Positions 448-34,892 are shown, numbered from the stretch's first letter. The stretch is DNA of 64,000 bases from an uncultured Eubacteriales bacterium (GCA_900546215.1 URCD01000001.1:15540-79539), one strand, 5' to 3'. The notes: generated by a model from the letters alone, not told the origin. Numbers and translations: made by a program.

Positions 448-487
448 CAGCCCTACGCTTTAAGCGTAAGGCTGTTTATTATTTTTT
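446..487. terminator. Bidirectional rho-independent terminator between convergent genes
   Basis: Hairpin cagccctacgc-tttaa-gcgtaaggctg, flanked by an A-run on the left and a T-run on the right. Confidence 0.6.
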
Positions 488-3037
488 CCTGCTGTAGGGC
501 GTATCCTCAAGAGGAAGCTTTGTTCTGAATTTACCGTCATAGTTATAATAAGCCAGCTGGACTGCTGGGGCTGTTGGGATTGAGGCTATTTCGCCTATTC
601 CTTTGGCGCCGTAGGCCAGTCCTCTTATTTTTTTGCCTATTGAAGCTGATTTTATTTCAGGAGTTTTATCAGCTCTGAAAAGTCCAAGACTTCCAAACCT
701 TGCGGCCGGCCTCCCCTCATTGAGAGGATAGTCCTCAGTAAGGGCGTAGCCGAGGCTCATGACAACGCCGCCCTCAATCTGGCCTTCCACAGACTTTGGA
801 TTTACCGGGGTTCCGACATCATGTACCGCCACAACCTGTTTAATTGTTCCGTTGTCATTCAGCTCTACAAGATGGGTTGCGTAGCCGTAGGCAATATGAC
901 TGATAGGATTTTCTTTGTCGGATCCAAGCTTATCAGTAACGCCGGTATATTCACCAAGAAATTCTCGGCCCTCAAGGGCTTCAAGAGAGCCTTCCTGCTC
1001 CATGGCCTCCTTAAGCGCCTTGGCGGCCCTTACCGCGGCCTCGCCTGTAAATAAGGTCTGGCGTGACGCGGTAGTATTGCCGGCATTGGGAGATGTTTTG
1101 GTGTCCGGTGTGTCATATGATATTCTGTCAGGTGAAATCCCCGTTGTTTCGCAGATCATTTGTACCTGTACAGTTCCCATTCCCTGTCCTATACAGGCAG
1201 CGCTGGAGGTAACGTGAATCTTACCTTCCTTTACTGTTATCCGGCATCTTCCAGTATCAGGTACGCCTACTCCTAAACCGCTATTTTTCAGCGCACATGC
1301 AATTCCCGCTTTGGGATTTTTTTCATATATATCCCTTACTGCATCAAGTGTTTCCACAAGTGCTGTGGTATCGTCTGCAATCTGCCCGTTGGGAAGTATG
1401 TTGCCCGGTCTCAGAGCATTGCGGTAGCGTATCTCAAAGGGGGTCAGCCCAGCCATTTCAGCCAGCTGGTTCAAGTTGCACTCTGTAGCAAAGCAGCTTT
1501 GCGTAACACCAAAGCCCCTGAACGCTCCGGCAGGAGGATTATTCGTATAATAAGCTTTTCCGGTTATATCAATAACCTGATAATTATACGGCCCGGCCGC
1601 ATGGGTACAGGCTCTCTGCAAGACGGGACCGCCGAGACTGGCGTAAGCCCCCGTATCTGATATTATTACCGCCTTCATAGCGGTTAGGTAACCGTTTTCA
1701 TCGCAGGCTGTTGTAAAATCCATTTCCATGGCGTGCCGTTTCGGATGGACAAGTATGCTTTCAGCTCTCGTTAGACGCACCTTGACAGGCCGGCCCGTGG
1801 CCTGCGCAAGCAGTGCTGCGTGGTGCTGTACGCTCATATCCTCTTTTCCGCCGAAGCCGCCGCCAACCATAGCCGCTGATACACGAACCTTTTCAATGGG
1901 AATGCCAAGTGCGTCAGAGCATTCACGCTGTGTTTGATATATGCCCTGGTCTCCGCTTATTATGTGTATACCGCCTTCCTCTGGATAGGCCACTGCGCAT
2001 TCCGGCTCCATAAACGCGTGCTCTGTAAAGGGTACGCTGTAGTGGTTTGTGACCTTGTATCTGCTTTTTGCGATTACCTCATCGGCGTTTCCGCGTACAA
2101 GGTGCTCGCTTGCCAAAAGGTTTCCATCCTCATGCACAAGCGGCGCGTTATCTTTCATTGCTTCATTTGGAGAAAACACTCCTTCAAGCGGCGCATACTC
2201 TACCTTGATAAGCTTTTTAGCCTGTTCAAGAATTTCAGCAGTTTCCGCCGCTATAAGCGCTATTGCATCTCCTAAATAGTGGGTAATTCCTCCAACAGGA
2301 ACCATGACATCCCAGTCACGCTTAAGATGTCCTACTTTTTTGGTTCCGGGAATGTCGGCCGCGGTCATTATACAGACAACGCCGTCCAGCTTTTCAGCCT
2401 CAGAGGTGTCAATGGAAAGCACCCTTGCTCTGGGATATTCGCTTCTAAGCGCTGAACCGGCAAGCATGTTTTCCATATAGTAATCGTCAGCATATTTGGC
2501 CTCGCCTGTAACCTTTGCGGCAGCATCAACACGGGCCATGCTCTCGCCTAAAAGGCCGGTAGAAACAGGCTCGTTTATTTCTGAATTTTCTCTGAATATT
2601 TCGGCGGCCATAAGTATGGCATCCTCGATTTTTTTGTAGCCGGTACAGCGGCATATATTATTTTTTATAGCCGTTTTTATATCATCTCTTGAGGGGCTTG
2701 GATTTTTATCCAGAAGAGCTTTGGCGCAGATAACCATGCCGGGTATACAAAATCCGCACTGAACCGCCCCTGCGTGGGAAAAGGCATAGCTGTATACAAC
2801 TTTTTCTCTGTCCGTTAAACCCTCAGTTGTGGTTATGCTTTTTCCGTCAAGGTTTTCAGTCTTCTGTACGCATGCCTTCTGCGCCCTTCCGTCTATAAGT
2901 ACGGTGCAGGTGCCGCAGGCTCCTTCCGCACAGCCGTTTTTCACGGAGGTAAGCCTGAGGCTGTCTCTTAAAAATGTCATTAGTCTTACGTTTTCGGTAA
3001 CTGTGTATGAAATGCCGTTTACTGTAAATACGGACAT
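479..3037 (-). CDS. xdhD: Xanthine-dehydrogenase-family molybdenum hydroxylase with an N-terminal [2Fe-2S] domain fused to a molybdopterin domain (XdhD-like). No FAD domain.
   Basis: N-terminus has the CAEGACGTC and CRCTGY 2Fe-2S motifs, followed by the aldehyde-oxidase/XDH hammerhead 'AAKVTGEAKYADD' and MoCo-binding regions. I prefer the start at 3037 (GGAGAGGAAG RBS 7 nt upstream); the longer ORF to 3070 has no RBS. Confidence 0.75.
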   Translation of the reverse strand: MSVFTVNGISYTVTENVRLMTFLRDSLRLTSVKNGCAEGACGTCTVLIDGRAQKACVQKTENLDGKSITTTEGLTDREKVVYSYAFSHAGAVQCGFCIPGMVICAKALLDKNPSPSRDDIKTAIKNNICRCTGYKKIEDAILMAAEIFRENSEINEPVSTGLLGESMARVDAAAKVTGEAKYADDYYMENMLAGSALRSEYPRARVLSIDTSEAEKLDGVVCIMTAADIPGTKKVGHLKRDWDVMVPVGGITHYLGDAIALIAAETAEILEQAKKLIKVEYAPLEGVFSPNEAMKDNAPLVHEDGNLLASEHLVRGNADEVIAKSRYKVTNHYSVPFTEHAFMEPECAVAYPEEGGIHIISGDQGIYQTQRECSDALGIPIEKVRVSAAMVGGGFGGKEDMSVQHHAALLAQATGRPVKVRLTRAESILVHPKRHAMEMDFTTACDENGYLTAMKAVIISDTGAYASLGGPVLQRACTHAAGPYNYQVIDITGKAYYTNNPPAGAFRGFGVTQSCFATECNLNQLAEMAGLTPFEIRYRNALRPGNILPNGQIADDTTALVETLDAVRDIYEKNPKAGIACALKNSGLGVGVPDTGRCRITVKEGKIHVTSSAACIGQGMGTVQVQMICETTGISPDRISYDTPDTKTSPNAGNTTASRQTLFTGEAAVRAAKALKEAMEQEGSLEALEGREFLGEYTGVTDKLGSDKENPISHIAYGYATHLVELNDNGTIKQVVAVHDVGTPVNPKSVEGQIEGGVVMSLGYALTEDYPLNEGRPAARFGSLGLFRADKTPEIKSASIGKKIRGLAYGAKGIGEIASIPTAPAVQLAYYNYDGKFRTKLPLEDTPYSRKK

Positions 3038-3149
3038 AGTATCGCTTCCTCTCCGTTTTATTATATTCATGTTATCATTTTAAACAGCGTTATTCAAGGC
3101 CGTTGACAATAGTGCGTTATTCTAAATTGAGGATAATGCATTTTCTGAC

Positions 3150-3195
3150 AACGCCTTTATTTACTTTGAGTTTAATGATATAATTTTATAATCAA
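3150..3195 (+). promoter_or_regulatory. Candidate sigma-A promoter region for xdhA (extended -10 'tgatataat')
   Basis: TGnTATAAT-like element at 3176-3184, plus a second tataat at 3187-3192. It sits in the 206-bp divergent region between the two hydroxylase genes. Confidence 0.3.
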
Positions 3196-3243
3196 AAAAA
3201 GTATTGTGGTAAGACATATATATAGACAAAGGGGTGAATAAAT

Positions 3244-5526
3244 ATGGCTGTTGGTGTAAGCGAGAAGCGCGTTGATGCCTTTGAAAAGGTAACAGGACGC
3301 GCTAAATATACCGATGATATGACTGAAAAAAATTTTTTGGTGGCTAAGGTATTCAGGTCCACAATAGCTAATGGAGTCGTAAAATCTCTGGATATTTCCG
3401 AGGCGGAAAAGATACCAGGTGTTGTCAGGATAATTACCTGTTTTGACGTGCCGCAGTATAAATTTCCCACAGCGGGACATCCGTGGTCAACAGACCCACA
3501 TCATCAGGACGTTGCCGACAGGCTTCTGCTAACAAGCAGAGTCAGATATTACGGTGACGATGTTGCCGCTGTAATTGCCGAGGACGAGGTTTCCGCAAAC
3601 CGCGCTTTAAGAGCAATAAAGGCTGAGTATGAGGAGTACCCCTTCGTCCTTGACCAGATAGAGGCTATGCAGGACGGGGCTCCCCAGATACATGAGGAAT
3701 ATAAGAACAATATACTTGCCCATACTCAAATGAAAAAAGGAAATTATGATGAGGCAGCGAAAGAGGAAGGGCTTATAAAGTTTGAGGGCTGGTATGACAC
3801 TCCTACTGTTCAGCACTGCCATATGGAAAACCATATATGCTACGCCTATGAGGAAGCTGGAAGGATAGTCGTTGTGTCCTCGACGCAGATACCGCATATA
3901 GTACGCCGTGTTGTAGGTCAGGCGCTGGGAATTCCCTGGGGTAAGGTAAGGATTATTAAGCCTTATATCGGCGGAGGTTTTGGAAACAAGCAGGACGCGC
4001 TGTATGAGCCTCTGTGCGCATACCTTACAACGCAGGTAGGAGGAAGACCGGTAAAAATTGATATGACAAGGGAGGAAACCTTTGCCTGCAACCGTGTACG
4101 CCACGCCATAAGAGTACATCTTATTACATACGCAAGGCCGGACGGAACATTTGTGGCAAGAAAATGCGAGTCATTCTCAAACCAGGGAGCCTATACCTCC
4201 CATGGGCACAGTATAGCAGCTAAAGGTATTTCCGCATTCAGCCAGATATATAAATGCGATGCCTATGAGGCAGACGCTTATTCAATATATACAAACAGGG
4301 CGACAGCGGGAGCCATGAGAGCCTATGGAATACCTCAGATTACCTTCGCCATGGAAAGCCATGTGGAGGACATTGCGAAAAAGCTTGGCATTGACTCAAT
4401 TAAGCTGCGTCAGAAAAATATGATGGAGGTCGGGTTTAAGGACGATTTCTCGAAGAATGAAAATTACTTTGACAGTCTTAACCAATGTATTGCCAAGGGC
4501 AGGGAATATATACACTGGGACGAGAAGCTGGAGAAATATAAAAATCAGACCGGCCCGGTTCGCAGAGGAATCGGAATGTCAATATTCTGGTACAATACGG
4601 CCGTGTGGCCTATATCGCTTGAGACCAGCGCATGCCGTATGGTGCTTAACCAGGACGGCTCCATACAGCTTCAGGTAGCTGAAACAGAAATTGGACAGGG
4701 AGCTGATACGGTATTTGCACAGATGGCTTCAGAGGCGCTTGGCATTAAATTTGAGGATGTGCATGTAATATCAACGCAGGATACCGATGTTACGCCCTTC
4801 GGTACAGGCGCTTATGCTTCTAGGCAGACCTACGTGGCTGGTTTCTCAATCAAACAGACAGCGGACCTTTTAAAGGATAAAATACTTGGTCATGCACAGG
4901 AGCTTACGAGAATGCCCAAGGCAAATCTTGATATAATAGATGGAAATATTGTTAGAGTATCTGACGGACGCGCGCTTATGACACTGGGTGATTTGGCTAA
5001 CGAGGTGCTTTACAGCCTTACAAACTGCGAGCATATTACAGCCGAAAGTACATATCAGATTAAGAGCAACGCCTATTCCTTTGGTTGTTGTTTTGCGGAG
5101 GTTGAGGTTGATATACCGCTCTGCAGGGTAAACGTACTGGATATCATAAACGTGCATGACTGCGGCAAGCTTATTAATCCTCAGCTTGCTGAAGCACAGG
5201 TTCACGGCGGAATGAGCATGGCAATAGGATACGCCCTGAGCGAGCAGCTTTTATATGACGAAAAGACAGGAAAACCGTTAAATAATAACCTTCTTGATTA
5301 TAAGCTGTGTACAACGATGGATCATCCTCATTTGGAGGCGCAGTTTGTTGAAAATTATGAGCCAACCAGTGCATTTGGTACAAAGGCTCTTGGGGAACCC
5401 CCGGCGGTTCCGGCTGCTCCTGCCATAAGAAATGCAGTTTTGAACGCAACGGGAGTATCCATGTATAAACTTCCTCTTAACCCGCATAATCTTTTTGTGC
5501 GTTTTAAAGAAGAAGGACTTATTTAA
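3244..5526 (+). CDS. xdhA: Xanthine dehydrogenase family, molybdopterin-binding large subunit
   Basis: 760 aa. N-terminal 'RVDAFEKVTGRAKYTDD' is the a/b hammerhead signature, followed by MoCo-binding domains. RBS aaaggggtg. Confidence 0.8.
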   Translation: MAVGVSEKRVDAFEKVTGRAKYTDDMTEKNFLVAKVFRSTIANGVVKSLDISEAEKIPGVVRIITCFDVPQYKFPTAGHPWSTDPHHQDVADRLLLTSRVRYYGDDVAAVIAEDEVSANRALRAIKAEYEEYPFVLDQIEAMQDGAPQIHEEYKNNILAHTQMKKGNYDEAAKEEGLIKFEGWYDTPTVQHCHMENHICYAYEEAGRIVVVSSTQIPHIVRRVVGQALGIPWGKVRIIKPYIGGGFGNKQDALYEPLCAYLTTQVGGRPVKIDMTREETFACNRVRHAIRVHLITYARPDGTFVARKCESFSNQGAYTSHGHSIAAKGISAFSQIYKCDAYEADAYSIYTNRATAGAMRAYGIPQITFAMESHVEDIAKKLGIDSIKLRQKNMMEVGFKDDFSKNENYFDSLNQCIAKGREYIHWDEKLEKYKNQTGPVRRGIGMSIFWYNTAVWPISLETSACRMVLNQDGSIQLQVAETEIGQGADTVFAQMASEALGIKFEDVHVISTQDTDVTPFGTGAYASRQTYVAGFSIKQTADLLKDKILGHAQELTRMPKANLDIIDGNIVRVSDGRALMTLGDLANEVLYSLTNCEHITAESTYQIKSNAYSFGCCFAEVEVDIPLCRVNVLDIINVHDCGKLINPQLAEAQVHGGMSMAIGYALSEQLLYDEKTGKPLNNNLLDYKLCTTMDHPHLEAQFVENYEPTSAFGTKALGEPPAVPAAPAIRNAVLNATGVSMYKLPLNPHNLFVRFKEEGLI

Positions 5527-5541
5527 GGGGAGGTATGACAG

Positions 5542-6423
5542 ATGTATGATATAAAAGCGTTATATGAGGCGCAGTCGGTATCCGATGCTGTGAAGCTCCT
5601 TACGGAACACCCGGATGCCGTTGTAATAGCAGGCGGAAGCGATGTGCTGATAAAGATGAGAGAAGGCAAGCTTGCAGGCTGTGAGCTTGTAAGCATATAC
5701 GGCCTTGACGAGCTTAGGGGAGTAAGGCTTGAGGAGGACGGAACAATCCGTATACTTCCTCTGACAAGCTTTTCGCATATAACAAAAAACGACATAATTC
5801 AAAAATATATAAATGTGCTTGGCGAGGCTGTGGATATGGTAGGCGGCCCGCAGATAAGAAATATCGGAACAATCGGCGGAAATACCTGCAACGGTGTTAC
5901 CTCGGCTGATTCCGCGTCAACGCTTCATGCCTATGACGCTGTTATGGAAATAACGGGGCCTGACGGAATCAGGCAGATTCCTATTCACGATTTTTATATA
6001 AGCGCCGGCAAGGTAGACCTGAAGCATAACGAGCTGCTTACTTCAATACTTATAAAAAAAGAAAGCTATGAAAACTGCTTTGGCCACTACATAAAATACG
6101 CAATGAGAAACGCCATGGATATAGCCACAACTGGATGTTCAGCCAACGTTAAGCTTTCATCGGATAAAAAGACCTTTGAAAGAGTACGTATAGCATATGG
6201 GGTTGCTGCTCCAGTTCCCGTCAGGGCGAAAAGTGCTGAGGATTTTATAAACGGCAGGGCAGTTACGCAGGATACTGTAGACGAGTGTGCAAAGCTTGCC
6301 TTGAATGACGTTAATCCAAGAACAAGCTGGAGAGCCTCAAAGGAGCTGAGACTGCAGCTTATAGAGGAACTTTCAAAAAGGGCTGTTACTGAGGCTGTAA
6401 AGCTGGCTGGAGGTGAGCTGTGA
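5542..6423 (+). CDS. xdhB: Xanthine dehydrogenase family FAD-binding subunit (CoxM/XdhB-like)
   Basis: 293 aa. 'VIAGGSDVLIKMREG' and 'GTIGGN' FAD-binding molybdopterin-dehydrogenase motifs. RBS ggggaggt. Confidence 0.75.
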   Translation: MYDIKALYEAQSVSDAVKLLTEHPDAVVIAGGSDVLIKMREGKLAGCELVSIYGLDELRGVRLEEDGTIRILPLTSFSHITKNDIIQKYINVLGEAVDMVGGPQIRNIGTIGGNTCNGVTSADSASTLHAYDAVMEITGPDGIRQIPIHDFYISAGKVDLKHNELLTSILIKKESYENCFGHYIKYAMRNAMDIATTGCSANVKLSSDKKTFERVRIAYGVAAPVPVRAKSAEDFINGRAVTQDTVDECAKLALNDVNPRTSWRASKELRLQLIEELSKRAVTEAVKLAGGEL

Positions 6424-6908
6424 TGCAGAGAAAGCTTGTAAAATGCACTATTAACGGAAAGTATACCGAGACTATGGTAGATGTAAGGGCATCCCTTACG
6501 GATATGCTCAGAAACGATTACAGGCTTACGTCGGTCAAAAAGGGCTGCGAGGTGGGCGAGTGCGGCGCGTGCAACGTCCTTATAGATGGGGAGTGCTTTA
6601 ACTCCTGTATTTACCTTGCGGTTTGGGCAGACGGAAAGGAAGTCAGAACCCTTGAAAGCCTGCTTGGACCTAATGGAGAGCTTTCAGATATACAGCAGGC
6701 GTTTATCGACGAAGGGGCTGTTCAGTGCGGTTTTTGTACTCCAGGGTTTATAATGTCTGCCGTTGAAATACTTGAGAGCGGAAAAAGGTACTCAAGAGAC
6801 GAGCTGAAAAAACTGCTTTCAGGGCATCTTTGCCGATGTACTGGATACGAAAATATAATTAATGCGGTAGAAAAGACAATGTTAAGCAGACTGGAAAATA
6901 AACAGTAA
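6423..6908 (+). CDS. xdhC: Xanthine dehydrogenase family [2Fe-2S] small subunit
   Basis: 162 aa. The CEVGECGAC, QCGFCTPG and CRCTGY cysteine motifs are present. The ATG overlaps the xdhB stop (TGATG). RBS ggaggtgag. Confidence 0.8.
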   Translation: MQRKLVKCTINGKYTETMVDVRASLTDMLRNDYRLTSVKKGCEVGECGACNVLIDGECFNSCIYLAVWADGKEVRTLESLLGPNGELSDIQQAFIDEGAVQCGFCTPGFIMSAVEILESGKRYSRDELKKLLSGHLCRCTGYENIINAVEKTMLSRLENKQ

Positions 6909-6940
6909 AATGTTTATAAATTTGATGAGCTTCAAAGTAA

Positions 6941-6970
6941 GGCGGATATTATATATCCGTCTTTTTTGTT
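6941..6970 (+). terminator. Rho-independent terminator after xdhC
   Basis: ggcggatat-tat-atatccgtc followed by ttttttgtt. Confidence 0.6.
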
Positions 6971-7433
6971 GCTCGGTAAAAAATTCCTTTATTAAACTAA
7001 AATTTTATATGTTACAAAAAACAATTGTATATAAAATAAAAGGTGGAAATATCGTAAAATAATTCTTTTTTCGTATTATTTAACTTAATTTTGTCGGGAT
7101 AAGTGTGCAAAATCCCGTATTCTATTGACGAAAGTTGAAATATTTAATAAGCTTTATAAAAATACAGAAGGCGTTAAGCCGACTGACACAATTTAATATT
7201 GAAACATAATCCGAAGCCTGGTCCGAAAGAAAGGAGAAGAGCAGAGCGGCCAACCGGCCGCCATAGGAAGAATGAGAGCGGATTTTGTTCAGATATAAAA
7301 GAAACGGCCAAAACACAACAATTCCCCAAAAGCTGTGTTTTTGCCTGCGCTTTTTTGATGAATAAAACCCCTCTAAATTTTCCTCTGCTCACTTCAGCAA
7401 GACCAGGCTTTTTATATTTATTCATAGCTTGGG

Positions 7434-7467: not shown

Positions 7468-7485
7468 TAAAGGATGGTGTTTCAA

Positions 7486-8652
7486 ATGAAAATTGCAGAA
7501 ATCAAAACTTATCCGCTTATGTACATGAAGGAATCTCCTAAAATACCCAGGACATTTCTTCTTTGTAAAATAACAACCGACGACGGGCTGGTGGGCTGGG
7601 GAGAGGCAAGCTCGGCGTACGGTCATTCTTATCCTCTTGTTGTCAAAGAAATCATCGACCACACTCTCTCCAGACTTGTTATAGGAGAGGATCCCCGGGA
7701 TATCGAAAAACTTGTGTCTAAAATGCGCACATGGATATGGGGATACCTCGGCCCTGTGGGAGTTTCAAATCAGGCTATTGCCGCCGTTGAAATTGCCATG
7801 TGGGATATTGTCGGAAAGGCAGCAGGACAGCCGGTGTATAAGCTGCTTGGAGCATTTAGGGACGAAATTGAGATTTACGGGACGGGCTGTACAAATTTTG
7901 ATGTGGATTATGAATGGCACAGGGAGTTTTTCAGACCATTGCTTGAGGCAGGATTTAAGGGGGTAAAATGCCGTGTAGGAAAAAGCAAGGATTGGGATGA
8001 GGCCTTTGTAGCCAACATCCGTGAGTTTATAGGCGACAACAAAAAGTTGTTTATTGATGCGTATATGACGTATACCCCGGAGACCGCATTTGAGATGGCA
8101 GGAAGATTTGCCGGCTATAAGCCTTATTTCTTTGAGGAGCCTATATCACAGTATGACCTTGAATCCTTGGAGAAAATATCTAAAGAGTCCCCTGTTCCTA
8201 TTGCACTGGGGGAACGTGTGACATCTCTTTATGAGTTCAAAAATCTCAGGGAAAAGCATATAGGCCAGATATGGCAGCCGGACGCATGCATAGCCGGAGG
8301 AATATCCGAGGCGAAAAAAATCTGCGCTTTAGGCGAGGCATACAGCATAGAATGCATACCTCATATAGGGGGCATAACGGCTGTAGGTATAGCCGCAAAC
8401 TTAAACCTTGCGCTTTCATGCAGAAATGTTAAGCAGCTTGAGGTTGATGGCGCTATGCTTCAGCCTATGAGGGATGACATAATAGAGGACGACATTTTTA
8501 ACATTGTAAGGATTAAGGATGGAATGCTAAGGCCATCGGGCAGGCCCGGGCTGGGAATAGAAATAAGGGAAGATGTGCTTAAGGATTTTAAATATGAGAG
8601 AGGTCCTGTTTATCCCGATTTCTATCCGCAGTATGGTTCTGGCATACTCTAA
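7486..8652 (+). CDS. Enolase-superfamily enzyme (mandelate racemase / muconate lactonizing enzyme family; dehydratase-like)
   Basis: 'MKIAEIKTYPL', 'VGWGEASS' and the MR/MLE fold pattern. ATG 7486 is preferred over 7474 because of AGGA spacing. Confidence 0.7.
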   Translation: MKIAEIKTYPLMYMKESPKIPRTFLLCKITTDDGLVGWGEASSAYGHSYPLVVKEIIDHTLSRLVIGEDPRDIEKLVSKMRTWIWGYLGPVGVSNQAIAAVEIAMWDIVGKAAGQPVYKLLGAFRDEIEIYGTGCTNFDVDYEWHREFFRPLLEAGFKGVKCRVGKSKDWDEAFVANIREFIGDNKKLFIDAYMTYTPETAFEMAGRFAGYKPYFFEEPISQYDLESLEKISKESPVPIALGERVTSLYEFKNLREKHIGQIWQPDACIAGGISEAKKICALGEAYSIECIPHIGGITAVGIAANLNLALSCRNVKQLEVDGAMLQPMRDDIIEDDIFNIVRIKDGMLRPSGRPGLGIEIREDVLKDFKYERGPVYPDFYPQYGSGIL

Positions 8653-8708
8653 AAAATTTTTATAGAACCAAAACAATATTTTTATGCCGATAAATAAGGG
8701 ATTTTGTA

Positions 8709-8737
8709 TTGACAAAAATATTTTTGTAAAATATAAT
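8709..8737 (+). promoter_or_regulatory. Consensus sigma-A promoter (TTGACA-17-TATAAT) driving the nucleoside-transporter operon
   Basis: ttgaca at 8709-8714, an exact 17-nt spacer, tataat at 8732-8737. About 185-nt leader before the first CDS. Confidence 0.65.
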
Positions 8738-8922
8738 AATTAAAACTTTTATAAATGAGTAATTTGTGATATAATAAAATATTACGCATTTTTATAAAGG
8801 GCTATGAGTCGGTTAGATGACAATGACGTCGTTGCTTTTAAGTAACGGCGTTTTTTGCAAGTTGGACGCTGTTAATTATTGTGTCAAAGGGGCGCAATGA
8901 GGATATAGAAAGGGAGGATAAA

Positions 8923-10038
8923 ATGAAAAGGAATTTAAAGAAACTGCTTGCAATGGCACTATCTGCCACAATGGTACTTTCAGTGGCTGCATGCTCCAGC
9001 TCTAAAAAGGAGGAGCCTGCGGACAAGGGACAGACAGAAGAAAGCGGAACAAAATCTGACATTAAAATTGGCCTTATTACAACAATCGGAGGACTCGGTG
9101 ACAGCTCAATCGGTGATGAGGGCTATAACGGAGTAAAAAACGCTTCCGAAGTACTTGGTTTTGAATTTGACTATTCAGAACCCATGACATCACAGGACCT
9201 TGAGGCACTTATAATCGAGTATTCCGAATCAGGCGAATATGACCTCATAGTCACACTTGGAAATGAATCTCTTGAGCCGGTTCAGTCTGAGCAGGCAAAT
9301 TATCCTGACCAGAAATATCTTGTATATGATATTGAGGCAGAGCATGAAAACGTTATTACAGAATGGTTCTCAAAGGATGAAATCGGTTTCATGGCAGGAT
9401 GCTTCATGGCGCTTATGGAGCCTTACGGACAGCTTATAATTAATGGGGAAACAAAAACCTGGGAACCCGGAAACACATACGGCCTTATAATCGGAGGAGA
9501 GTATCCTTCAACGGTTTCGGCAATTACAGGCGCAGCGGCTGGCATTAAATATATTGACCCTGAGAACGAGTATTTATACGCAATTGTAGGCGACTGGAAA
9601 GACCAGGCTAAAAATAAGGAGCTTGCCCTCTCAATGTACGATCAGGGAGCTCACTTTATTTTCCATAACGCAGGCGGCGGATGCAACGGAATACTTGAGG
9701 CTGCCAAGGAAAGAGACGGTTTCTTTGTTGGTTACGATGGAAACCAGAACAACTTAGACCCTACACATGTAGTTGCTTCTTCAATCAAATGCAACAGTGA
9801 CGTTATTCTTCGTGTGCTTACGCAGTTTGTTGAGACAGGAGAACTGGCATGGGGAACAGCAGAGGAAAATGGATACGCAAACGGCGGTATCGACTTCGTA
9901 TATCAGGACGGACTTGAGGTTCCTGAGGAAGTATCTGCTGCTATGGAAGCAATAAAAGAAAAATTGAAAGCCGGAGAAATAACACCTCCTTCAACATGGG
10001 AAGACGTTGAAACATTCACAGCGGTATACGAAGGCTGA
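8923..10038 (+). CDS. BMP-family (PnrA/TmpC-like) ABC substrate-binding lipoprotein, nucleoside-type
   Basis: Signal peptide and lipobox 'VAACSS'. 'KIGLITTIGGLGDSSIGDEGYNG' is the BMP-family signature. RBS agggagg. The GTG-extended ORF from 8881 is rejected. Confidence 0.8.
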   Translation: MKRNLKKLLAMALSATMVLSVAACSSSKKEEPADKGQTEESGTKSDIKIGLITTIGGLGDSSIGDEGYNGVKNASEVLGFEFDYSEPMTSQDLEALIIEYSESGEYDLIVTLGNESLEPVQSEQANYPDQKYLVYDIEAEHENVITEWFSKDEIGFMAGCFMALMEPYGQLIINGETKTWEPGNTYGLIIGGEYPSTVSAITGAAAGIKYIDPENEYLYAIVGDWKDQAKNKELALSMYDQGAHFIFHNAGGGCNGILEAAKERDGFFVGYDGNQNNLDPTHVVASSIKCNSDVILRVLTQFVETGELAWGTAEENGYANGGIDFVYQDGLEVPEEVSAAMEAIKEKLKAGEITPPSTWEDVETFTAVYEG

Positions 10039-10108
10039 TAAATATGAGATCACACAGATGTCATAGGGGTTCAACCTCTATGACATTTGTTTTAAGGAGG
10101 CCAGACAG

Positions 10109-11650
10109 GTGGAAAACAACATTATTGAAATGAAAAATATCTGCATATCCTTTGGAGACCTCATGGCCAATAAAAACGTAGACTTTTCAGTTAAAGAGGG
10201 AGAGATAATGGCGCTGCTGGGGGAGAACGGAGCCGGTAAGTCAACCCTAATGAAAATTCTCTACGGTCTGTATGCGAGGGACAAGGGCGAAATAACGGTA
10301 GAAGGCAAAAAAATGCCGCATAAGTATTCGCCTATGGATATGATTAATCTTGGTATTTCAATGGTTCCACAGCAGTTTATGCTTGTAGACGCCTTTACGG
10401 TTGCAGAAAATATAATTCTGGGCAAGGAGAAGGTTGTAGGAAAATTTGTATTTAATAAAAAGAAGGCTGAACAGCTGGTTGCGGACCTCTGCGAGGAATT
10501 TGACATACGTCTTAACCCATCCGATACTGTAGCCTCGCTTTCCCTTGGAGAAAAGCAGAAAATAGAAATTCTTAAGGCTCTGTACAGGGGCGGCAGGGTA
10601 ATAATACTTGACGAGCCGACAACAATACTAACCCCTCAGGAGGTTTCAGAGCTTTTTTCTCTTTTAAAATCTCTAAAGGCAAAGGGCATATCGGTGATTT
10701 TAATTGCGCATAAGCTTCAGGAGGTTATGGACGTTACAGACAGGATTACAGTTATGAGGCTTGGGGAAAAGGTGGCGGTAGTTAATACTGCCCAGACAAA
10801 CATAAACGAGCTTGCTGAAACTATGGTAGGCAGAAGGCTTAACAGCGTTTGTGTGGATTTCAAGGAGGAGCATGAGGCTCCGCTTATCAAATTTGTAGAC
10901 GTTTCTACAAAAAAGCAGGGAGAAAGATGCCCTCTCAATAATTTTAACCTGGAGCTTTATCCGTCAAGAGTTGTGGGAATTGCAGGAATTGACGGCAACG
11001 GACAGACAGAACTTGTGGAAGTAATGGCCGGCATAAAGCAGATTAAAAGCGGTTCTATAATAATTGACGGCAAGGAAATCAGGGATAATTCCCATGCCGT
11101 TATGAAAGATCAGGGAATAGGGATAATTCCCGAGGACAGAAGGGAACAGGGATTGGTGCTGGACCTTTCGATTAAGGACAATATTATTATAGGACGAAGA
11201 AAGGACAAGGAATTTGTCAACAAGGGTGTGTTTAAAAAGAGAGATGTTAATGCCTATGCCGATGAGCTTATAAAGGAATTTGACGTGCGTCCGCCCAAAA
11301 GGGACGTTATCTGCCGTTTTGTTTCAGGGGGAAACCAGCAGAAAATAGTACTGGCTAGAGAACTGAGCAGGCCGGGTCTTAAAACAATTGTCGCTTCACA
11401 GCCTATAAGAGGACTTGATATAGGAGCGATAGAGTTTACTCACAGAACCCTTTTAAGATTTCGTGAGGAAGGAAAGGCCGTACTCCTTATATCCAGTGAT
11501 TTGGATGAGATAATGGAGCTGAGCGATTATATAGCGGTATTGTCTGAAGGAGAAATTGTCGCCTTTAAGCCAAGAAACCAGTTTACAGTAGAGGAAATAG
11601 GCCTGTATATGGGCGGAGAAAAAGCTGAGGAAAGGAGAGACGCCATATGA
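10109..11650 (+). CDS. ABC transporter ATP-binding protein with duplicated ATPase domains
   Basis: 513 aa. Walker A 'GENGAGKST', two ABC signature regions, Walker B 'ILDEPT' twice. GTG start 7 nt after aggagg. Confidence 0.8.
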   Translation: MENNIIEMKNICISFGDLMANKNVDFSVKEGEIMALLGENGAGKSTLMKILYGLYARDKGEITVEGKKMPHKYSPMDMINLGISMVPQQFMLVDAFTVAENIILGKEKVVGKFVFNKKKAEQLVADLCEEFDIRLNPSDTVASLSLGEKQKIEILKALYRGGRVIILDEPTTILTPQEVSELFSLLKSLKAKGISVILIAHKLQEVMDVTDRITVMRLGEKVAVVNTAQTNINELAETMVGRRLNSVCVDFKEEHEAPLIKFVDVSTKKQGERCPLNNFNLELYPSRVVGIAGIDGNGQTELVEVMAGIKQIKSGSIIIDGKEIRDNSHAVMKDQGIGIIPEDRREQGLVLDLSIKDNIIIGRRKDKEFVNKGVFKKRDVNAYADELIKEFDVRPPKRDVICRFVSGGNQQKIVLARELSRPGLKTIVASQPIRGLDIGAIEFTHRTLLRFREEGKAVLLISSDLDEIMELSDYIAVLSEGEIVAFKPRNQFTVEEIGLYMGGEKAEERRDAI

Positions 11651-12714
11651 AAGATAATATGAAATTTAAAAAGTTTTTAGGCGACGCCGGAAGAATTGTG
11701 GCGGCATTCCTTATAGCTCTTATAATAGGCGGAATTTTCCTTGCCTTTTTAGGACAGTCACCGATAGAGGCATATATAGTTATTTTTTCCAAGGCCATAG
11801 ACGGCTTTGACCAGGTGCTTAGGCGTATGACCCCGCTTATGCTGACGGGACTTGCGGTTGCTATCCCTCTTAAAACAGGAATGTTAAATATGGGCGGAGA
11901 AGGCCAGATTGCAGTCGGTGCGCTTATAGGAGCGCTTGTCGGCGCATATGTGCCGCTGCCGGGCATTATTCATCCTATAGTATGTATGATAGCCGCTGCA
12001 ATAGGCGGAGGAATTGCGGCGCTTATTCCGGCATTTCTTAAGGTTAAGTTTGGTTCGGGAGAGGTTGTAACCTCTATCATGCTTAACTACGTTATTATGT
12101 ATATCATTAAATATCTTACAATGTATCCGCTGAGAGCATCCAACAACATGCCTCAGACAGCTGATGTTTTAGATTCAGCCGTTTTGGCAAGACCTGTTCA
12201 GGGACAGCAGTGGGCATGGGGGCTTTTTATCGCCCTTGGAATTTGTTTTCTTATGCAGTTTTTCCTTGAAAAAACCAATAAGGGACTGGAGCTTAAAAGC
12301 GCAGGATTAAGCCCGCTTACCTCAAAGTATCAGGGAATCAATATCAGGACGCTTTCTCTGCTTGGCATGGTTATAGGCGGTGCGTTGGCTGGCGTTGGAG
12401 GAACTCTTGAGGTTCTTGGCGGAAAATACGCATATTTGGACGGATATTTTGACAACTATGGATGGGACGGAGTGGCTATCTGTTATATGGCAAAGGGAAA
12501 TCCCATTGTTGTTATACTTACGTCATTCATTATTTCCGTAATAAGGGTAGGTGCGGCTGCGCTGGACAGAAAAACAAATATATCGGTATTCTTTTCCATT
12601 GCCCTCTACGGAGTTATAATCATTCTTCTTGTTTCACCCCATCTTATCCAAATTATTATTGACTTCTTCAAAAAGAGATTTGCACCAAAAGAAACGGCAA
12701 AGGAGGAAGCGTAA
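11647..12714 (+). CDS. ABC transporter permease (BMP-family system)
   Basis: 355 aa, multi-TM hydrophobic. ATG overlaps the upstream stop (ATATGA). Confidence 0.75.
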   Translation: MKDNMKFKKFLGDAGRIVAAFLIALIIGGIFLAFLGQSPIEAYIVIFSKAIDGFDQVLRRMTPLMLTGLAVAIPLKTGMLNMGGEGQIAVGALIGALVGAYVPLPGIIHPIVCMIAAAIGGGIAALIPAFLKVKFGSGEVVTSIMLNYVIMYIIKYLTMYPLRASNNMPQTADVLDSAVLARPVQGQQWAWGLFIALGICFLMQFFLEKTNKGLELKSAGLSPLTSKYQGINIRTLSLLGMVIGGALAGVGGTLEVLGGKYAYLDGYFDNYGWDGVAICYMAKGNPIVVILTSFIISVIRVGAAALDRKTNISVFFSIALYGVIIILLVSPHLIQIIIDFFKKRFAPKETAKEEA

Positions 12715-13599
12715 ATGGCAATATCGACTTTATTATCAAGCTCGCTTAGAATGATGACTCCTCTGCTTTTCGCGGCCCTGGGAGTGCTTGTAACCTCAAA
12801 AGCCGGAGTCGTAAATATGGGCATGGAGGGGAACATGCTCTTTGGCGCATTTATTTCGGTCTATTTTACATACGTCACCGGAAATCCGCTGGTTGGGCAG
12901 ATAGCGGCGCTTATGTTTGGCATGATATACGGACTTGTAATGTCCTTTTTCATAATCATATGCAAGGCAAATCATACCGTGTGCGGCCTTGGACTTAACT
13001 TTGTAGCCCAGGGTGCGACCACTGTTTTGCTTGGCACGGTATGGAACACTTCAGGAATATCTCCGTCAGTTACAAAATTTCCCTCATTCACAATGGGGCC
13101 TTTAGGACTGCAGTCCTATAATATAATCATTGTTCTGCTGCTTTGCGCGCTTGTATGGTTTACGCTTGGCAGGACTAACTTCGGACTCAGAATGCGCTCA
13201 GTTGGCGAAAACCCGGCTGCTGCTGATTCAGTTGGTATATCCGTAGGAAGATACCAGCTTATGGCCATGATTATTGCCGGGGCTTTAGGAGGGCTTGCAG
13301 GTTCTGAGCTTGCCATAGGACAGACAGGCTCCTTTGCTAAGCTTATGACCTCATCAAAGGGCTTCCTTTCCTACTCAGCGGTTATTTTTGGCGGCTACGG
13401 AGTTATAGGAACAATTCTTACAACCTTTGTTCTGGGATTTTTGGACGCGTTCCAGATGAGGGCGCAGACCGTATTCAATATTCCAGGACAGCTTCTTCTT
13501 ATGCTTCCTTACCTGTTTACGCTTATTGCGCTTATAGGTGTGGGCAATGTCAAGAAGCCTGCGGCTATGGGCAAAATTTATGAACGAGGAAAATTCTGA
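12715..13599 (+). CDS. ABC transporter permease (second permease)
   Basis: 294 aa, multi-TM. Starts 1 nt after the upstream stop. Confidence 0.75.
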   Translation: MAISTLLSSSLRMMTPLLFAALGVLVTSKAGVVNMGMEGNMLFGAFISVYFTYVTGNPLVGQIAALMFGMIYGLVMSFFIIICKANHTVCGLGLNFVAQGATTVLLGTVWNTSGISPSVTKFPSFTMGPLGLQSYNIIIVLLLCALVWFTLGRTNFGLRMRSVGENPAAADSVGISVGRYQLMAMIIAGALGGLAGSELAIGQTGSFAKLMTSSKGFLSYSAVIFGGYGVIGTILTTFVLGFLDAFQMRAQTVFNIPGQLLLMLPYLFTLIALIGVGNVKKPAAMGKIYERGKF

Positions 13600-13623
13600 T
13601 ATTTTACGGGAGGCAGATAATCA

Positions 13624-16750: not shown

Positions 16751-16761
16751 GAGGAATTATT

Positions 16762-17574: not shown

Positions 17575-17586
17575 GGAGGAAGCCCT

Positions 17587-31983: not shown

Positions 31984-32355
31984 TTATAGTTCATTACCCA
32001 ATTCAGATATGGGATAAAATGAAAATATATCTTTAATAATACGGTCAGAAGCATCCTCAATTTCAGCGCAGTACTGCCTGTAGGCGGCCATCATTTTTTT
32101 AGCCTCATCGGTTACTTTAGCGCCGCCTCCGCTTTTTCCGCCGGTTGTGGAGCATAAAAGCTTAAACCCTAAATTTTTTTCGCATTCCTTAACAATTTTC
32201 CATGCCTTAGAATAGGCCATGTCCATACTGATAGCGGCTCTGCGGAGCGAGCCATATTCCTCTATCTGCTCCAAAAGGAGGCATATTCCCGGACCGAAGC
32301 ACTTGTCCTCGGTATACAGATGTATTCTAATCTTAGCCTTAAGTTCCTTTTCCAT
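31984..32355 (-). CDS. ModE-N-terminal-like winged-HTH regulator (LysR-type HTH / molybdate-responsive regulator family)
   Basis: 123 aa. 'GSLRRAAISMDMAYSKAWKIV' matches the ModE/LysR HTH. Divergent from yqeC. Confidence 0.55.
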   Translation of the reverse strand: MEKELKAKIRIHLYTEDKCFGPGICLLLEQIEEYGSLRRAAISMDMAYSKAWKIVKECEKNLGFKLLCSTTGGKSGGGAKVTDEAKKMMAAYRQYCAEIEDASDRIIKDIFSFYPISELGNEL

Positions 32356-32413
32356 TGTAAACCCTCCAAAAAAGTGTTATCCTTAGAATAATATAACGGT
32401 GAGGTGTAGGCGT

Positions 32414-33085
32414 ATGCTTTCAGAAATTTTAAATATTAAACCCGGGCTTACCTCAATTATAGGAAGCGGCGGTAAAACAACGCTTATGTACAGTCTTGCC
32501 AAAGAACTGTCAGCGTCAAAAAAGGTCGTTATCTGCACCTTTACAAAAATTTATAAGCCTGAACATATTATAACACTTACAGACCCATCAGAGGAAGATA
32601 TAAAAAATGCACTTTTGGCCAATAACTGTATATGTGTCGGAAAGTTATCCACAGAAGAAAAATTAACAATGCCGGATATTCCTGTGGAAATTTTGCTGAA
32701 ATACGCGGATTATGTAATTTCAGAGGCAGACGGGGCAAAGGGGCTGCCTTTAAAAGCCCATAGGCATTATGAGCCGGTTATCCACAGAAAACCTGTGAAT
32801 ACAATTCAAGTTCTGGGGATAAGTGGCATAAATAAAAAAATTAAGGATGTCTGCCATAGGCCTGAAACATATGCGGAAATAGCCGGAGCGTCAATAAACG
32901 ATAAAGTAACGCCTGAAATGGCCGCCCGTGTGGTCAAAAGGGAAGGTCTATGCGACACGCTTATAATAAACCAGGTGGAAAATGACGATAATATGAAGGA
33001 CGCGGAAAAAATTGCCGCTTATTTGGACATACCGGTTTTTGCCGGAGAAATAAGGAAAGGGGATTTGATATGCTTGCGATTATAA
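32414..33085 (+). CDS. yqeC: Selenium-dependent molybdenum hydroxylase accessory protein YqeC (P-loop protein)
   Basis: About 224 aa. N-terminal P-loop 'IGSGGKTTLMY'. Positioned next to yqeB and selD. ATG 32414 (RBS ggtgaggtg) is preferred over the GTG-extended ORF. Confidence 0.65.
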   Translation: MLSEILNIKPGLTSIIGSGGKTTLMYSLAKELSASKKVVICTFTKIYKPEHIITLTDPSEEDIKNALLANNCICVGKLSTEEKLTMPDIPVEILLKYADYVISEADGAKGLPLKAHRHYEPVIHRKPVNTIQVLGISGINKKIKDVCHRPETYAEIAGASINDKVTPEMAARVVKREGLCDTLIINQVENDDNMKDAEKIAAYLDIPVFAGEIRKGDLICLRL

Positions 33086-33855
33086 AAGGGGCTGGAGACA
33101 TCGCTTCAGGAATAGCACTCAGGCTCAGGCACGCTAAATTTGATGTTGTTATGACAGACTTGAAAAAGCCTACGGCAATCAGACGTACCGTCTGTTTTTC
33201 TCAGGCAATAGTAAACGGAGAAACGGCTGTGGAGGATGTTAAAGCCGAAAAAGCCGATAATACGGACGATATACAGGATATTATAAACAGGGGAAACATT
33301 GCGGTTATAGCCGATGCAGAGGGAGAGTGTATAAAAAAGCTTAAACCCTATTTTCTGATAGACGCTGTATTGGCAAAGAAAAACTTAGGAACGTCAATTG
33401 AGGACGCTCCGGTCGTTATAGGCGTGGGCCCAGGCTTTACCGCCGGTATTGACTGCGATGCTGTTATTGAAACCCAAAGGGGACACTATCTTGGCAGGGT
33501 TATATTAAAGGGAAGTGCTGCTGAGAATACGGGGGTTCCCGGAAATATAGGAGGATATACCACCGAAAGAATAATTAGGGCGGCAAAAGACGGTATTTTT
33601 TCACCCGTCTGCGCCATAGGCGATATTGTGGAGGCCGGTCAGACTGTGGCATATGTTGATGATGAGCCTGTTAAGAGCCAAATCGGCGGAGTGCTCAGAG
33701 GTATTCTGCCTAAGGGAACTCCTGTATTTAAAGGAATGAAAAGCGGCGACGTTGACCCGAGATGTAAAATTGAACACTGCTGGTGCGTATCAGACAAGGC
33801 ATTAGCTGTCGGCGGCGGGGTACTTGAGGCAATGCTTGCGCTGAAGGAGGATTGA
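33070..33855 (+). CDS. yqeB: Selenium-dependent molybdenum hydroxylase system protein YqeB (EF2563 family)
   Basis: 261 aa. 'IIKGAGDIASGIA' N-terminus is typical of the YqeB family. Overlaps the yqeC 3' end by 16 nt and the selD start. Confidence 0.65.
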   Translation: MLAIIKGAGDIASGIALRLRHAKFDVVMTDLKKPTAIRRTVCFSQAIVNGETAVEDVKAEKADNTDDIQDIINRGNIAVIADAEGECIKKLKPYFLIDAVLAKKNLGTSIEDAPVVIGVGPGFTAGIDCDAVIETQRGHYLGRVILKGSAAENTGVPGNIGGYTTERIIRAAKDGIFSPVCAIGDIVEAGQTVAYVDDEPVKSQIGGVLRGILPKGTPVFKGMKSGDVDPRCKIEHCWCVSDKALAVGGGVLEAMLALKED

Positions 33856-33857
33856 AA

Positions 33858-34892
33858 ATGGATGATATAAGGCTTACAAAGCTGGCTGACTGTGCTGGCT
33901 GCGGTGCAAAGGTAGGCGCCGGCGTGCTTGCAAAGCTTCTTGAGGATATAGAGGTGCTTGATGACCCAAACCTGCTGGTTGGATTTGATAAAAGCGACGA
34001 TGCATCAGTATATAAAATAAATAATGAGCAGGCCATTGTCCAGACTGTGGATTTCTTTCCTCCCATATGCGATGACCCATATATATTTGGACAGATTGCG
34101 GCTGCAAATGCCATGTCTGATATATACGCAATGGGCGGACAGCCTAAGCTTGCACTGAATATAATGGCTGTTCCAACGTCTATGAACAAGGAGCATGTCC
34201 ATGCAATCCTAAAGGGCGGATATGAGAAGGTTTACGAGGCCGGGGCGCTGATAACGGGAGGACATTCTATTTATGACAAGGAACCAAAATATGGTCTTTC
34301 AGTGACTGGCTTTGTACATCCGGATAAAATAATTACAAACAGCGGAGCAAGGGAAGGCGATGTGCTTATACTTACAAAGCCAATAGGAATCGGAATTATT
34401 ACAACAGCCGCTAAGGCTGACATGGTATCTGAGGAAGGCCTGCAATTTGTGTATTGCCTTATGTCAACGCTTAATAAGTCGGCGAGGGACATAATGGTCA
34501 AGTACAACGTGCATGCATGTACAGATGTGACAGGCTTCGGACTCATGGGGCATCTTTTGGAAATGGCGCAGGGTTCAGATAAAGCCGCTGTTGTTGATAC
34601 AGAAAATATAGATTATATAAATGAGGCAAAGTTTTTAGCACAAAGTGGTATACTGCCGGAGGGACTTTACCGAAACAGGAGCTACGCGGAAGGATTTGTT
34701 GAACCTGGAAATATAAAGCTTTCAGTGCAGGACATGCTGTTTGATCCCCAGACCTCAGGAGGACTGCTTATCGCGGTTTCTCCAGAGGATGCGGATATGC
34801 TGTTCAATGAGCTGAAGGGAAGGGTGCCAAGCGCCCAAAGGATAGGACATATAGAAAATTATAAGGGCGGAGCTAGGATTATTTTGAGATAA
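33858..34892 (+). CDS. selD: Selenide, water dikinase (selenophosphate synthetase), Cys-type
   Basis: 'DCAGCGAKVGAG' corresponds to the SelD GCGCK active-site loop, with Cys (not TGA) at the catalytic position. AIR-synthase-like fold motifs are present. RBS gaaggagg 7 nt upstream. Confidence 0.8.
   Translation: MDDIRLTKLADCAGCGAKVGAGVLAKLLEDIEVLDDPNLLVGFDKSDDASVYKINNEQAIVQTVDFFPPICDDPYIFGQIAAANAMSDIYAMGGQPKLALNIMAVPTSMNKEHVHAILKGGYEKVYEAGALITGGHSIYDKEPKYGLSVTGFVHPDKIITNSGAREGDVLILTKPIGIGIITTAAKADMVSEEGLQFVYCLMSTLNKSARDIMVKYNVHACTDVTGFGLMGHLLEMAQGSDKAAVVDTENIDYINEAKFLAQSGILPEGLYRNRSYAEGFVEPGNIKLSVQDMLFDPQTSGGLLIAVSPEDADMLFNELKGRVPSAQRIGHIENYKGGARIILR

Follow-up and report, generated by a model that had tools for sequence, protein, structure and literature searches.

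Divergent xdhABC and XdhAC-type fusion genes as probable selenium- and molybdenum-dependent entry enzymes of urate breakdown in an uncultured Eubacteriales bacterium

The closest described system is that of Clostridium sporogenes, where XdhAC (CLOSPO_02131), purified as a fusion of iron–sulphur (Fe-S) and molybdenum cofactor (MoCo) domains without a flavin adenine dinucleotide (FAD) domain, is 2,8-dioxopurine dehydrogenase (DOPDH), a selenium-dependent enzyme that reduces urate at C6, works in both directions between urate and 2,8-dioxopurine when methyl viologen, but not NAD(P)H, is the redox partner, and shows no activity if a selD mutant is the source of the preparation (Liu et al. 2025, 10.1101/2025.04.24.650524). 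In the same work, DOPDH clustered closest to the selenium-dependent nicotinate dehydrogenase and differed from bovine xanthine oxidoreductase by F1009V and A1078T/S, a separate xanthine dehydrogenase (XDH) of the XdhABC type was required for conversion of hypoxanthine and xanthine to urate, with the XDH mutant blocked at this step, the selD mutant phenocopied the XDH/DOPDH double mutant, and YgfK was described as an NADPH-dependent 2,8-dioxopurine reductase (DOPOR) (10.1101/2025.04.24.650524). Escherichia coli XdhD, which co-purifies with YgfM, performs the same reduction of urate to isoxanthine with NADH, after which YgfK and SsnA bring about dearomatisation and then ring opening, and deletion of xdhA in E. 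coli leaves xanthine unconsumed (Li et al. 2025, 10.1101/2025.05.19.654654). Two further homologues carry a different name: Enterococcus faecalis EF2570, the founding member of family TIGR03311, is reported as a selenium-dependent XDH, and a Blautia 'sd-XDH' has been linked, correlatively, to conversion of 6-mercaptopurine to 6-thioxanthine. Here we describe a 64,000-nucleotide stretch of DNA from an uncultured Eubacteriales bacterium (GCA_900546215.1 URCD01000001.1:15540-79539), analysed as a whole and referred to below as the window, in which an XdhAC-type fusion gene and an xdhABC operon are transcribed divergently from one control region.

We assign a probability of about 70% to the reading in which XdhABC supplies urate and a DOPDH-type fusion converts it to 2,8-dioxopurine, both enzymes depending on SelD, YqeB and YqeC. 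This reading builds on the domains and families of the proteins, on their active-site signature and on the synteny seen in relatives, while the reactions and the selenium dependence are taken from the literature on homologues. XdhABC would hydroxylate hypoxanthine and xanthine to urate, and the fusion would run the hydroxylase reaction backwards at C6, taking urate to 2,8-dioxopurine with electrons that would come from a low-potential carrier and not from NAD(P)H; an FAD site is missing from it. The 2,8-dioxopurine would then pass to the NADPH-dependent reductase YgfK and on to SsnA for ring opening, and both molybdenum enzymes would receive a labile selenium ligand through SelD, YqeB and YqeC.

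The fusion gene (479..3037, minus strand) encodes a single chain of 852 amino acids (aa) with two [2Fe-2S] domains, a hammerhead domain and the MoCo domains. Pfam places Fer2/Fer2_2 at residues 5–141 and the a/b hammerhead at residues 177–284, with a linker of about 30 residues between the Fe-S part and the hammerhead, and also detects MoCoBD_1 and MoCoBD_2, while the FAD_binding_5 and CO_deh_flav_C domains were not found in this protein by the Pfam scan. A ribosome-binding site, GGAGAGGAAG, lies upstream of the ATG at 3037. The minus-strand open reading frame (ORF) extends over 479..3070, where an alternative ATG would give a protein of 863 aa, a reading that is unlikely because the start ATGTCCGTAT is kept in four species and the bases upstream of it diverge (alignment A2). 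On the plus strand, xdhA (3244..5526) encodes a 760-aa molybdopterin subunit (Pfam hammerhead and MoCoBD_1/2), xdhB (5542..6423) a 293-aa FAD subunit (FAD_binding_5 and CO_deh_flav_C) and xdhC (6420..6908) a subunit with two [2Fe-2S] domains (Fer2 and Fer2_2), which comprises 162 aa when read from a GTG, or 161 aa when the ATG at 6423 is taken as the start, the latter being the gene call on a 262-kb gut-metagenome scaffold (L001). xdhC is translationally coupled to xdhB, which it overlaps by 4 nt (1 nt from the ATG). The operon is closed by a terminator-like hairpin with a T-run (6939..6973, plus strand; 11-bp stem, 3-nt loop, TTTTGTTGCT tail) that begins 31 nt past the xdhC stop codon. An earlier note on this DNA, made from the sequence alone, had described divergent sets of 852, 760, 293 and 162 aa around a 206-bp spacer and a fusion without an FAD domain, all of which we recovered; the overlapping junctions that it reported within xdhABC exist between xdhB and xdhC, while xdhA and xdhB are separated by a gap of 15 nt.

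Family models separate the two enzymes clearly. Among the NCBIfam models, TIGR03311 matches the fusion with 1363.7 bits (cut-off 830.45) over residues 4–850 of 852, and the protein falls below the cut-offs for the XdhD family TIGR03313 (230.5 bits vs 1101.9), aldehyde oxidoreductase (481 vs 1100), PucD (465 vs 784), 4-hydroxybenzoyl-CoA reductase (4-HBCR; 316 vs 995) and carbon monoxide (CO) dehydrogenase (195 vs 950). XdhA, which is 47% identical to E. coli XdhA, scores 1261.2 bits on NF043082 (cut-off 780) and 1202.5 bits on NF007426 (cut-off 916), XdhB 444.1 bits on NF043083 (cut-off 310) and XdhC 257.5 bits on NF043084 (cut-off 217); two equivalog models are passed by each of these subunits, E. 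coli-derived models included, and XdhA stays below the cut-offs for aldehyde oxidoreductase (328 vs 1100), CO dehydrogenase (321 vs 950) and 4-HBCR (525 vs 995). The proposal that both are purine-type hydroxylases is borne out, as each passes only its purine-family cut-off and not those of the aldehyde, CO or 4-hydroxybenzoyl-CoA enzymes. The description of the fusion as 'XdhD-like' fits its domain architecture; membership in the E. coli XdhD family itself was rejected on the basis of the score given above, an identity of 28% and differing site residues, and the insertion that carries E606 of XdhD is missing. The exact 852-aa protein is recorded in 124 assembly blocks, scaffold L001 among them, and each of the nearest 120 clusters listed in a protein database search is at least 81% identical to it. 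A 99%-identical protein from a genus of the Clostridia bears the NCBI name selenium-dependent xanthine dehydrogenase, a widely propagated name that is probably outdated and misdescribes the fusion enzyme.

Active-site residues were mapped by hidden Markov model (HMM) alignment with HMMER to bovine XDH (3UNA/1FO4) and by MAFFT alignment with E. coli XdhA and XdhD from NC_000913; residues are listed below in the order fusion, window XdhA, E. coli XdhA and E. coli XdhD. Bovine Q767 (Q364, Q215, Q206, Q414) and the catalytic E1261 (E816, E718, E710, E917) are present in all four proteins, while E802 corresponds to E399, Q250, Q241 and Q449, R880 to R475, K327, A318 and N525, R912 to R507, R359, R350 and Q557, and F914 to F509, Y361, Y352 and Y559. 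The pair E802 and R880, which orients the substrate in canonical XDH (bovine and Rhodobacter capsulatus), is thus found in the fusion and not in XdhA, and window XdhA shares the E. coli XdhA site (Q215, Q250, R359, Y361 and E718) except at position 880. At the two remaining positions the fusion has V590 (bovine F1009) and T656 (bovine A1078), matching the signature published for DOPDH of C. sporogenes, F1009V and A1078T/S. Among 29 genome homologues of at least 46% identity, 28 have V at position 1009 and one has M, and all 29 have T or S at position 1078. The alignment to characterised enzymes that the earlier note had suggested returns an XDH-like site with the DOPDH signature for the fusion and the E. 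coli XdhA pattern for XdhA, and its statement that substrates cannot be read from sequence was too pessimistic, published signature residues and synteny being available. A bifunctional or canonical XDH reading of the fusion, drawn from E802 and R880, was dropped given the data of Liu et al. and the signature residues. E606 of XdhD was also considered as a marker of urate-to-isoxanthine enzymes and rejected for the TIGR03311 family, on which it is uninformative because it falls in an XdhD-specific insertion that neither window protein has.

The window further encodes the selenium-cofactor genes and the next two pathway enzymes. The plus-strand cluster yqeC-yqeB-selD (32399..34892) scores above all cut-offs (TIGR03172 158.7 bits, TIGR03309 358.7 bits and TIGR00476 405.9 bits) and is separated from the fusion-gene start by about 29 kb, in line with the distance previously noted; with selD, yqeB and yqeC present, both enzymes are credible candidates for the selenium cofactor, as had been supposed. 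ygfK (37655-40606, minus strand; TIGR03315 1340.8 bits, cut-off 835) and ssnA (40669-42084, minus strand; NF005540 656 bits, cut-off 444) follow. On scaffold L001, two more genes with a possible part in selenium handling, one encoding a TusA/DsrE fusion and the other a Se_S_carrier (PF11823), lie at 18640-19562, 6–7 kb outside the left window edge.

Compared with C. sporogenes, the window fusion has the same Fe-S and MoCo content without FAD, the same V/T pair at positions 1009 and 1078 in an otherwise XDH-like site and, per residue, the same nearest solved relative, the selenium-dependent nicotinate dehydrogenase. The window also shares with that organism selD, yqeB, yqeC, ygfK, ssnA and a separate XdhABC. 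Unlike the C. sporogenes gene, the fusion gene is divergent from xdhABC, lies 35 kb from ygfK-ssnA and stands outside a uricolytic cluster. The order Mo, FAD, Fe-S of the plus-strand genes is that of E. coli XdhABC and of C. sporogenes XDH (XdhA EDU37525.1, for which the published threshold is at least 31% identity at 80% coverage or more), both of which genetics ties to the conversion of xanthine or hypoxanthine to urate, and window XdhA agrees with E. coli XdhA in having Q at position 802, Y at 914 and a conserved E1261, differing at position 880 (K327 vs A318). E. coli XdhD-YgfM (TIGR03313/TIGR03312) resembles the fusion in large-subunit architecture and DOPDH in its reported reaction and in its place before YgfK and SsnA, but XdhD differs from the fusion at four site positions (Q449, N525, Q557 and Y559 vs E399, R475, R507 and F509) and requires the FAD subunit YgfM and NADH, whereas C. 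sporogenes DOPDH does not use NAD(P)H. From these comparisons, XdhD (L002:26317-29187, E. coli K-12) and the DOPDH family would seem to have arrived independently, within the XDH superfamily, at one reported reaction. The expectation that the two window enzymes act at different ring positions agrees with this assignment; a division into one enzyme turning hypoxanthine into xanthine and one making urate from xanthine does not, as the literature credits XDH with both of these steps and the fusion type with 6-dehydroxylation of urate.

A family profile (alignment A1) retrieved 80 loci from species genomes, which were annotated by tblastn with window and E. coli proteins, and gene neighbourhoods were counted within 10 kb of each of the 29 homologues introduced above. 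ygfK or ssnA is present near 16 of the 29, and at least one pathway gene near 20. The locus used here as a proxy for C. sporogenes XdhAC (EDU35963.1), to which Liu et al. require at least 46% identity and at least 80% coverage, is L007; it has the gene order of C. sporogenes, ygeW-ygfK-ssnA-ygeY-(yqeA)-xdhAC, and its fusion homologue is 60% identical to the window protein; a Vagococcus locus (L013), in which the genes match those listed for E. faecalis EF_2563-2582, encodes a homologue of 57% identity. These two proteins span 1498–1616 bits on TIGR03311, with L013 at 1498. E. coli-type xdhABC occurs in 7/29 neighbourhoods, and in five loci (L003, L009, L019, L026 and L033) xdhAC is followed in tandem by xdhABC on the same strand. 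The divergent layout is kept in three related species (L083, L084/85 and L086; proteins 82–85% identical), and the four genes travel as a module, because the genes flanking them in these species are unrelated. Immediately after the module, L084 has a gene for a small ModE-like protein and then yqeC-yqeB-selD. L033, from an uncultured Blautia sp., carries ssnA-ygfK-xdhAC-xdhABC-yqeB-yqeC in one block, and the 6-mercaptopurine oxidation credited to 'sd-XDH' of B. wexlerae could equally be attributed to the adjacent XdhABC.

Three other readings were weighed. The fusion could be a selenium-dependent XDH that takes xanthine to urate, leaving XdhABC as a second, partly redundant or differently specific hydroxylase acting, for example, on hypoxanthine or thiopurines. 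The curated product name of TIGR03311, the NCBI name of the 99%-identical protein, the report on EF2570, the retention of the canonical xanthine-binding residues E802, R880 and F914, and the Blautia work all favour such an enzyme, yet the window fusion bears the F1009V and A1078T changes and its relatives are embedded beside ygfK-ssnA, whose products consume 2,8-dioxopurine. EF2570 itself, which shares the TIGR03311 family with the window fusion, differs from it in being the sole XDH-family enzyme of its genome and in lying inside a uricolytic/selenium cluster; no other homologue occurs in E. faecalis, yet a related Enterococcus given urate gives off a fluorescent product resembling isoxanthine, and the assignment behind the published name predates the recognition of 2,8-dioxopurine. 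The Blautia claim, in turn, concerns an organism with xdhABC next door. We consider an XDH function of the fusion unlikely. It is very unlikely, in our estimate, that the fusion, FAD-less in itself, associates with XdhB or with a YgfM-like flavoprotein encoded elsewhere and is NAD-linked in the manner of E. coli XdhD-YgfM, which would agree with the proposal of the earlier note that an FAD subunit is borrowed. Such docking would draw on the facts that XdhD is likewise an Fe-S/Mo fusion that co-purifies with YgfM and uses NADH, that xdhB is 2.5 kb away and that both gene sets are linked in several lineages. The fusion is outside the XdhD family, however, its C. sporogenes homologue does not use NAD(P)H, and neither a second FAD-subunit gene nor a ygfM homologue was found in the 64-kb window. 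Borrowing of XdhB is also not supported because close relatives mostly have no FAD-subunit gene nearby: such a gene is missing within 10 kb in 19/29 and is directly upstream in only 1/29, as opposed to 9/29 of the fused homologues below 40% identity, and where one is present (10/29) it always belongs to a separate three-subunit set or to an XdhD-YgfM pair. Operation without FAD appears, from these neighbourhoods, to be the norm for the TIGR03311-type fusion family.

A non-purine substrate for one or both enzymes (nicotinate, aldehydes or aromatic acyl-CoA) is highly improbable, despite being what the nearest solved structures would suggest. These are Desulfovibrio gigas aldehyde oxidoreductase and Eubacterium barkeri nicotinate dehydrogenase for the fusion, the best match per residue being the latter (3HRD, 296 bits over 408 residues), and the alpha subunit of 4-HBCR, then CO dehydrogenases, for XdhA, which in addition has Q250 and K327 in place of E802 and R880. 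The nicotinate enzyme resembles the fusion in its Mo domain and is itself selenium-dependent, with a labile Se ligand, but its Mo subunit is split, its FAD and Fe-S subunits are separate, its residue at bovine position E802 is L and its substrate is nicotinate. We rejected the nearest structures as a guide to function: neither window protein comes near the cut-offs of those families, both exceed purine-family cut-offs, and the ranking is a sampling effect, because no closer purine enzyme of either subfamily has a solved structure. The variant site of XdhA is common to E. coli XdhA, the deletion of which abolishes xanthine consumption, and the surroundings are purine-related (a nucleoside-type BMP ABC transporter, adenosine deaminase, ygfK, ssnA and selD/yqeBC). 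Some observations do weigh against a DOPDH-type fusion that feeds YgfK and SsnA. The fusion keeps E802/R880, which is the canonical xanthine-binding pair, and both the curated TIGR03311 name and the EF2570 work say xanthine dehydrogenase. The putative orthology with C. sporogenes XdhAC rests on HMM score, signature residues and synteny, ygfK-ssnA are at the distance of 35 kb already mentioned, and no homologue of the lower pathway genes hyuA, ygeW, ygeX, ygeY or yqeA was found within the 64-kb window, which thus accounts for part of the pathway. Furthermore, XdhD-type and TIGR03311-type enzymes share one cluster in L025 and L032, and because they coexist there they may not be simple functional equivalents and may have different electron donors or roles. 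The cluster in L025 (1011-12874, Candidatus Crickella caballi) comprises an XdhD-type enzyme (TIGR03313, 1226.7 bits) with a YgfM-like protein, a TIGR03311 DOPDH-type enzyme (1114.7 bits) and xdhB/xdhC in one uricolytic cluster.

The divergent control region (3038..3243; 206 bp, 29% G+C) holds blocks that are conserved across four species (alignment A2). Two promoters were predicted from sequence and cross-species conservation. That of the fusion gene (3069..3097, minus strand) would consist of a −35 element TTGAAT (3092-3097), a 17-nt spacer and an extended −10 element TGATAACAT (3069-3077), with CTTGAA and TAAAATGATAACAT conserved in A2, and that of xdhABC (3156..3184, plus strand) of a −35 element TTTATT, a 17-nt spacer and an extended −10 element TGATATAAT, with TAATGnTATAAT and TTTATTTA invariant in A2. 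The corresponding predicted transcription starts fall near 3062 and 3191. A generic sigma-70 scanner returned one weak minus-strand site at chance level and did not list the predicted fusion-gene promoter. Between the predicted promoters lies a ModE-type palindromic candidate operator, CGTTAT-N12-ATAATG (3115..3138), with its centre at an equal distance, 55.0 bp, from the centres of the two predicted −10 elements. An extra half-site, GCGTTATTC (3087..3095, plus strand), is an exact direct repeat of 3114-3122, overlaps the predicted fusion-gene −35 element and is weakly conserved in relatives. The palindrome has the half-sites and spacing (RTTAT-N12-ATAAY) of the E. coli modA operator CGTTATATTGTCGCCTACATAACG, that is, CGTTAT-ATTGTCGCCTAC-ATAACG, and fits the ModE motif RTTATGT-N8-RCATAAY of Methanosarcina acetivorans, which was validated by electrophoretic mobility shift assay and has the same TTAT-N12-ATAA spacing. 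A second candidate operator, TGTTAT-N12-ATAACG (32375..32398), lies in front of yqeC. Like ModE operators, both window palindromes are in promoter regions of molybdenum-related genes, and CGTTAT-N12-ATAACG with at most one mismatch occurs twice in 64 kb against an expectation of 0.09, with two occurrences reached in 0/100 shuffles.

Matches to the operator recur in relatives. They are found in the xdhAC/xdh spacers of L083 (9899-9922) and L084/85 (L084:9872-9895), upstream of yqeC in L084 (4685-4708) and L003 (19012-19035), upstream of xdhA in L003 (13462-13485) and upstream of selD in L026 (12833-12856) and L029 (14644-14667). In the window, the second palindrome is flanked on its other side by a gene for a 123-aa ModE-like winged-helix regulator (31984..32355, minus strand), a DNA-binding domain only (Pfam HTH_1), which is 29% identical to the N-terminus of E. 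coli ModE over 83 aa and the L084 counterpart of which sits between xdhC and yqeC. We propose, with lower confidence than the enzyme assignments, that the midway palindrome would control both promoters and that its counterpart, together with the small ModE-like protein, would place yqeC-yqeB-selD under the same ModE-type control. This shared operator is the one element of the locus that may be new, and our literature search found nothing specific on ModE control of xdh genes in Clostridia. Several features speak against common control: the ModE-like protein scores 58 bits on TIGR00637, below the cut-off of 98.5; unlike E. coli ModE it is without the Mop/TOBE molybdate-binding domains; in L084 the symmetry of operator and promoters is lost through an insertion of about 200 bp; and only xdhA among the xdh genes of L003 has an operator in front. 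The L084 insertion (approx. 9620-9870; A2 columns 184-398) is rich in G+C hairpin-forming repeats and parts the operator from the xdhA-side promoter.

Other candidates for control were set aside. No Rfam match was obtained in the spacer in a permissive scan of 2950-3350 (E<=1), and a riboswitch or structured RNA there was rejected, the whole-window Rfam search at gathering threshold having given only a lysine riboswitch at 54378-54545. The TetR gene at 1-447 was discounted as a local regulator, as related species lack it at their equivalent loci. In E. coli K-12, the divergent yqeC-mocA spacer (L002:20129-20152) holds a one-mismatch ModE-type site, CGTTATTAGCCCCTATAAATAATG, and molybdate control of selenium-cofactor genes may, judging from this site, be widespread.

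Co-expression of the two enzymes makes redox sense because conversion of xanthine to urate releases two electrons and conversion of urate to 2,8-dioxopurine consumes two, and this complementarity of XdhABC and the fusion could be an answer to the question of the DOPDH electron donor. More tentatively, it is possible, though doubtful, that the two ModE-type palindromes and the truncated ModE-like protein form a molybdenum-responsive regulon that switches on both Se/Mo purine enzymes with their cofactor genes, and that, with the two enzymes made in stoichiometric amounts, electrons from xanthine oxidation by XdhABC could drive urate reduction by DOPDH, making xanthine to 2,8-dioxopurine a redox-neutral isomerisation. 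The repeated linkage of xdhAC and XdhABC suggests a testable candidate source of DOPDH electrons, and the operator, if real, would tie urate-degrading enzymes and selenium-cofactor genes to molybdate supply, which would fit reports that both trace elements are required for urate to be eliminated in the intestine.

Characterisation of both enzyme types dates from 2025, and the locus is a clear but ordinary example of known steps of anaerobic purine and urate breakdown, with a divergent layout conserved in related species where other Clostridia have tandem genes. Its interest lies in an abundant uncultured gut Clostridia lineage (Candidatus Metalachnospira) carrying both Se/Mo entry enzymes as a compact and, if the operator is real, co-regulated module. 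Host urate is lowered by gut bacteria that have the 2,8-dioxopurine pathway, an effect of relevance to gout, hyperuricaemia and chronic kidney disease, and the enzymes of the pathway may inactivate thiopurine drugs.

Among the more distant fusions (31–39% identity), those of nine loci (L045, L049, L053, L056, L057, L059, L062, L063 and L068) from Chloroflexota, Actinomycetota and other groups are directly preceded by a gene for an FAD subunit; N replaces bovine R880 in most of these, and likewise in most of the Actinomycetota members, and by their residues and gene order they seem to form a distinct, uncharacterised subfamily. In L084 (9141-9539) and L086 (9377-9793), an ORF of 132–138 aa with no Pfam match lies between the shared promoter region and xdhA; this ORF is absent from the window and from L083. 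Downstream of xdhABC, the plus-strand genes at 7474-18393 encode an enolase-superfamily dehydratase, a four-gene BMP/PnrA-type ABC transporter, an ADP-forming acyl-CoA ligase, adenosine deaminase and two crotonases, and may constitute a nucleoside-uptake and catabolism block, which fits the purine/nucleoside context. Further along the plus strand are a 2-hydroxyacyl-CoA-dehydratase/double-cubane-like protein fused or paired with an activase ATPase (45043-47981), the lysine riboswitch (RF00168, 94.4 bits) with an operon for an amino-acid ABC transporter downstream of it (54641-57145), and a homologue of the LarA-family nickel-pincer 2-hydroxyacid racemases (59490-60797).

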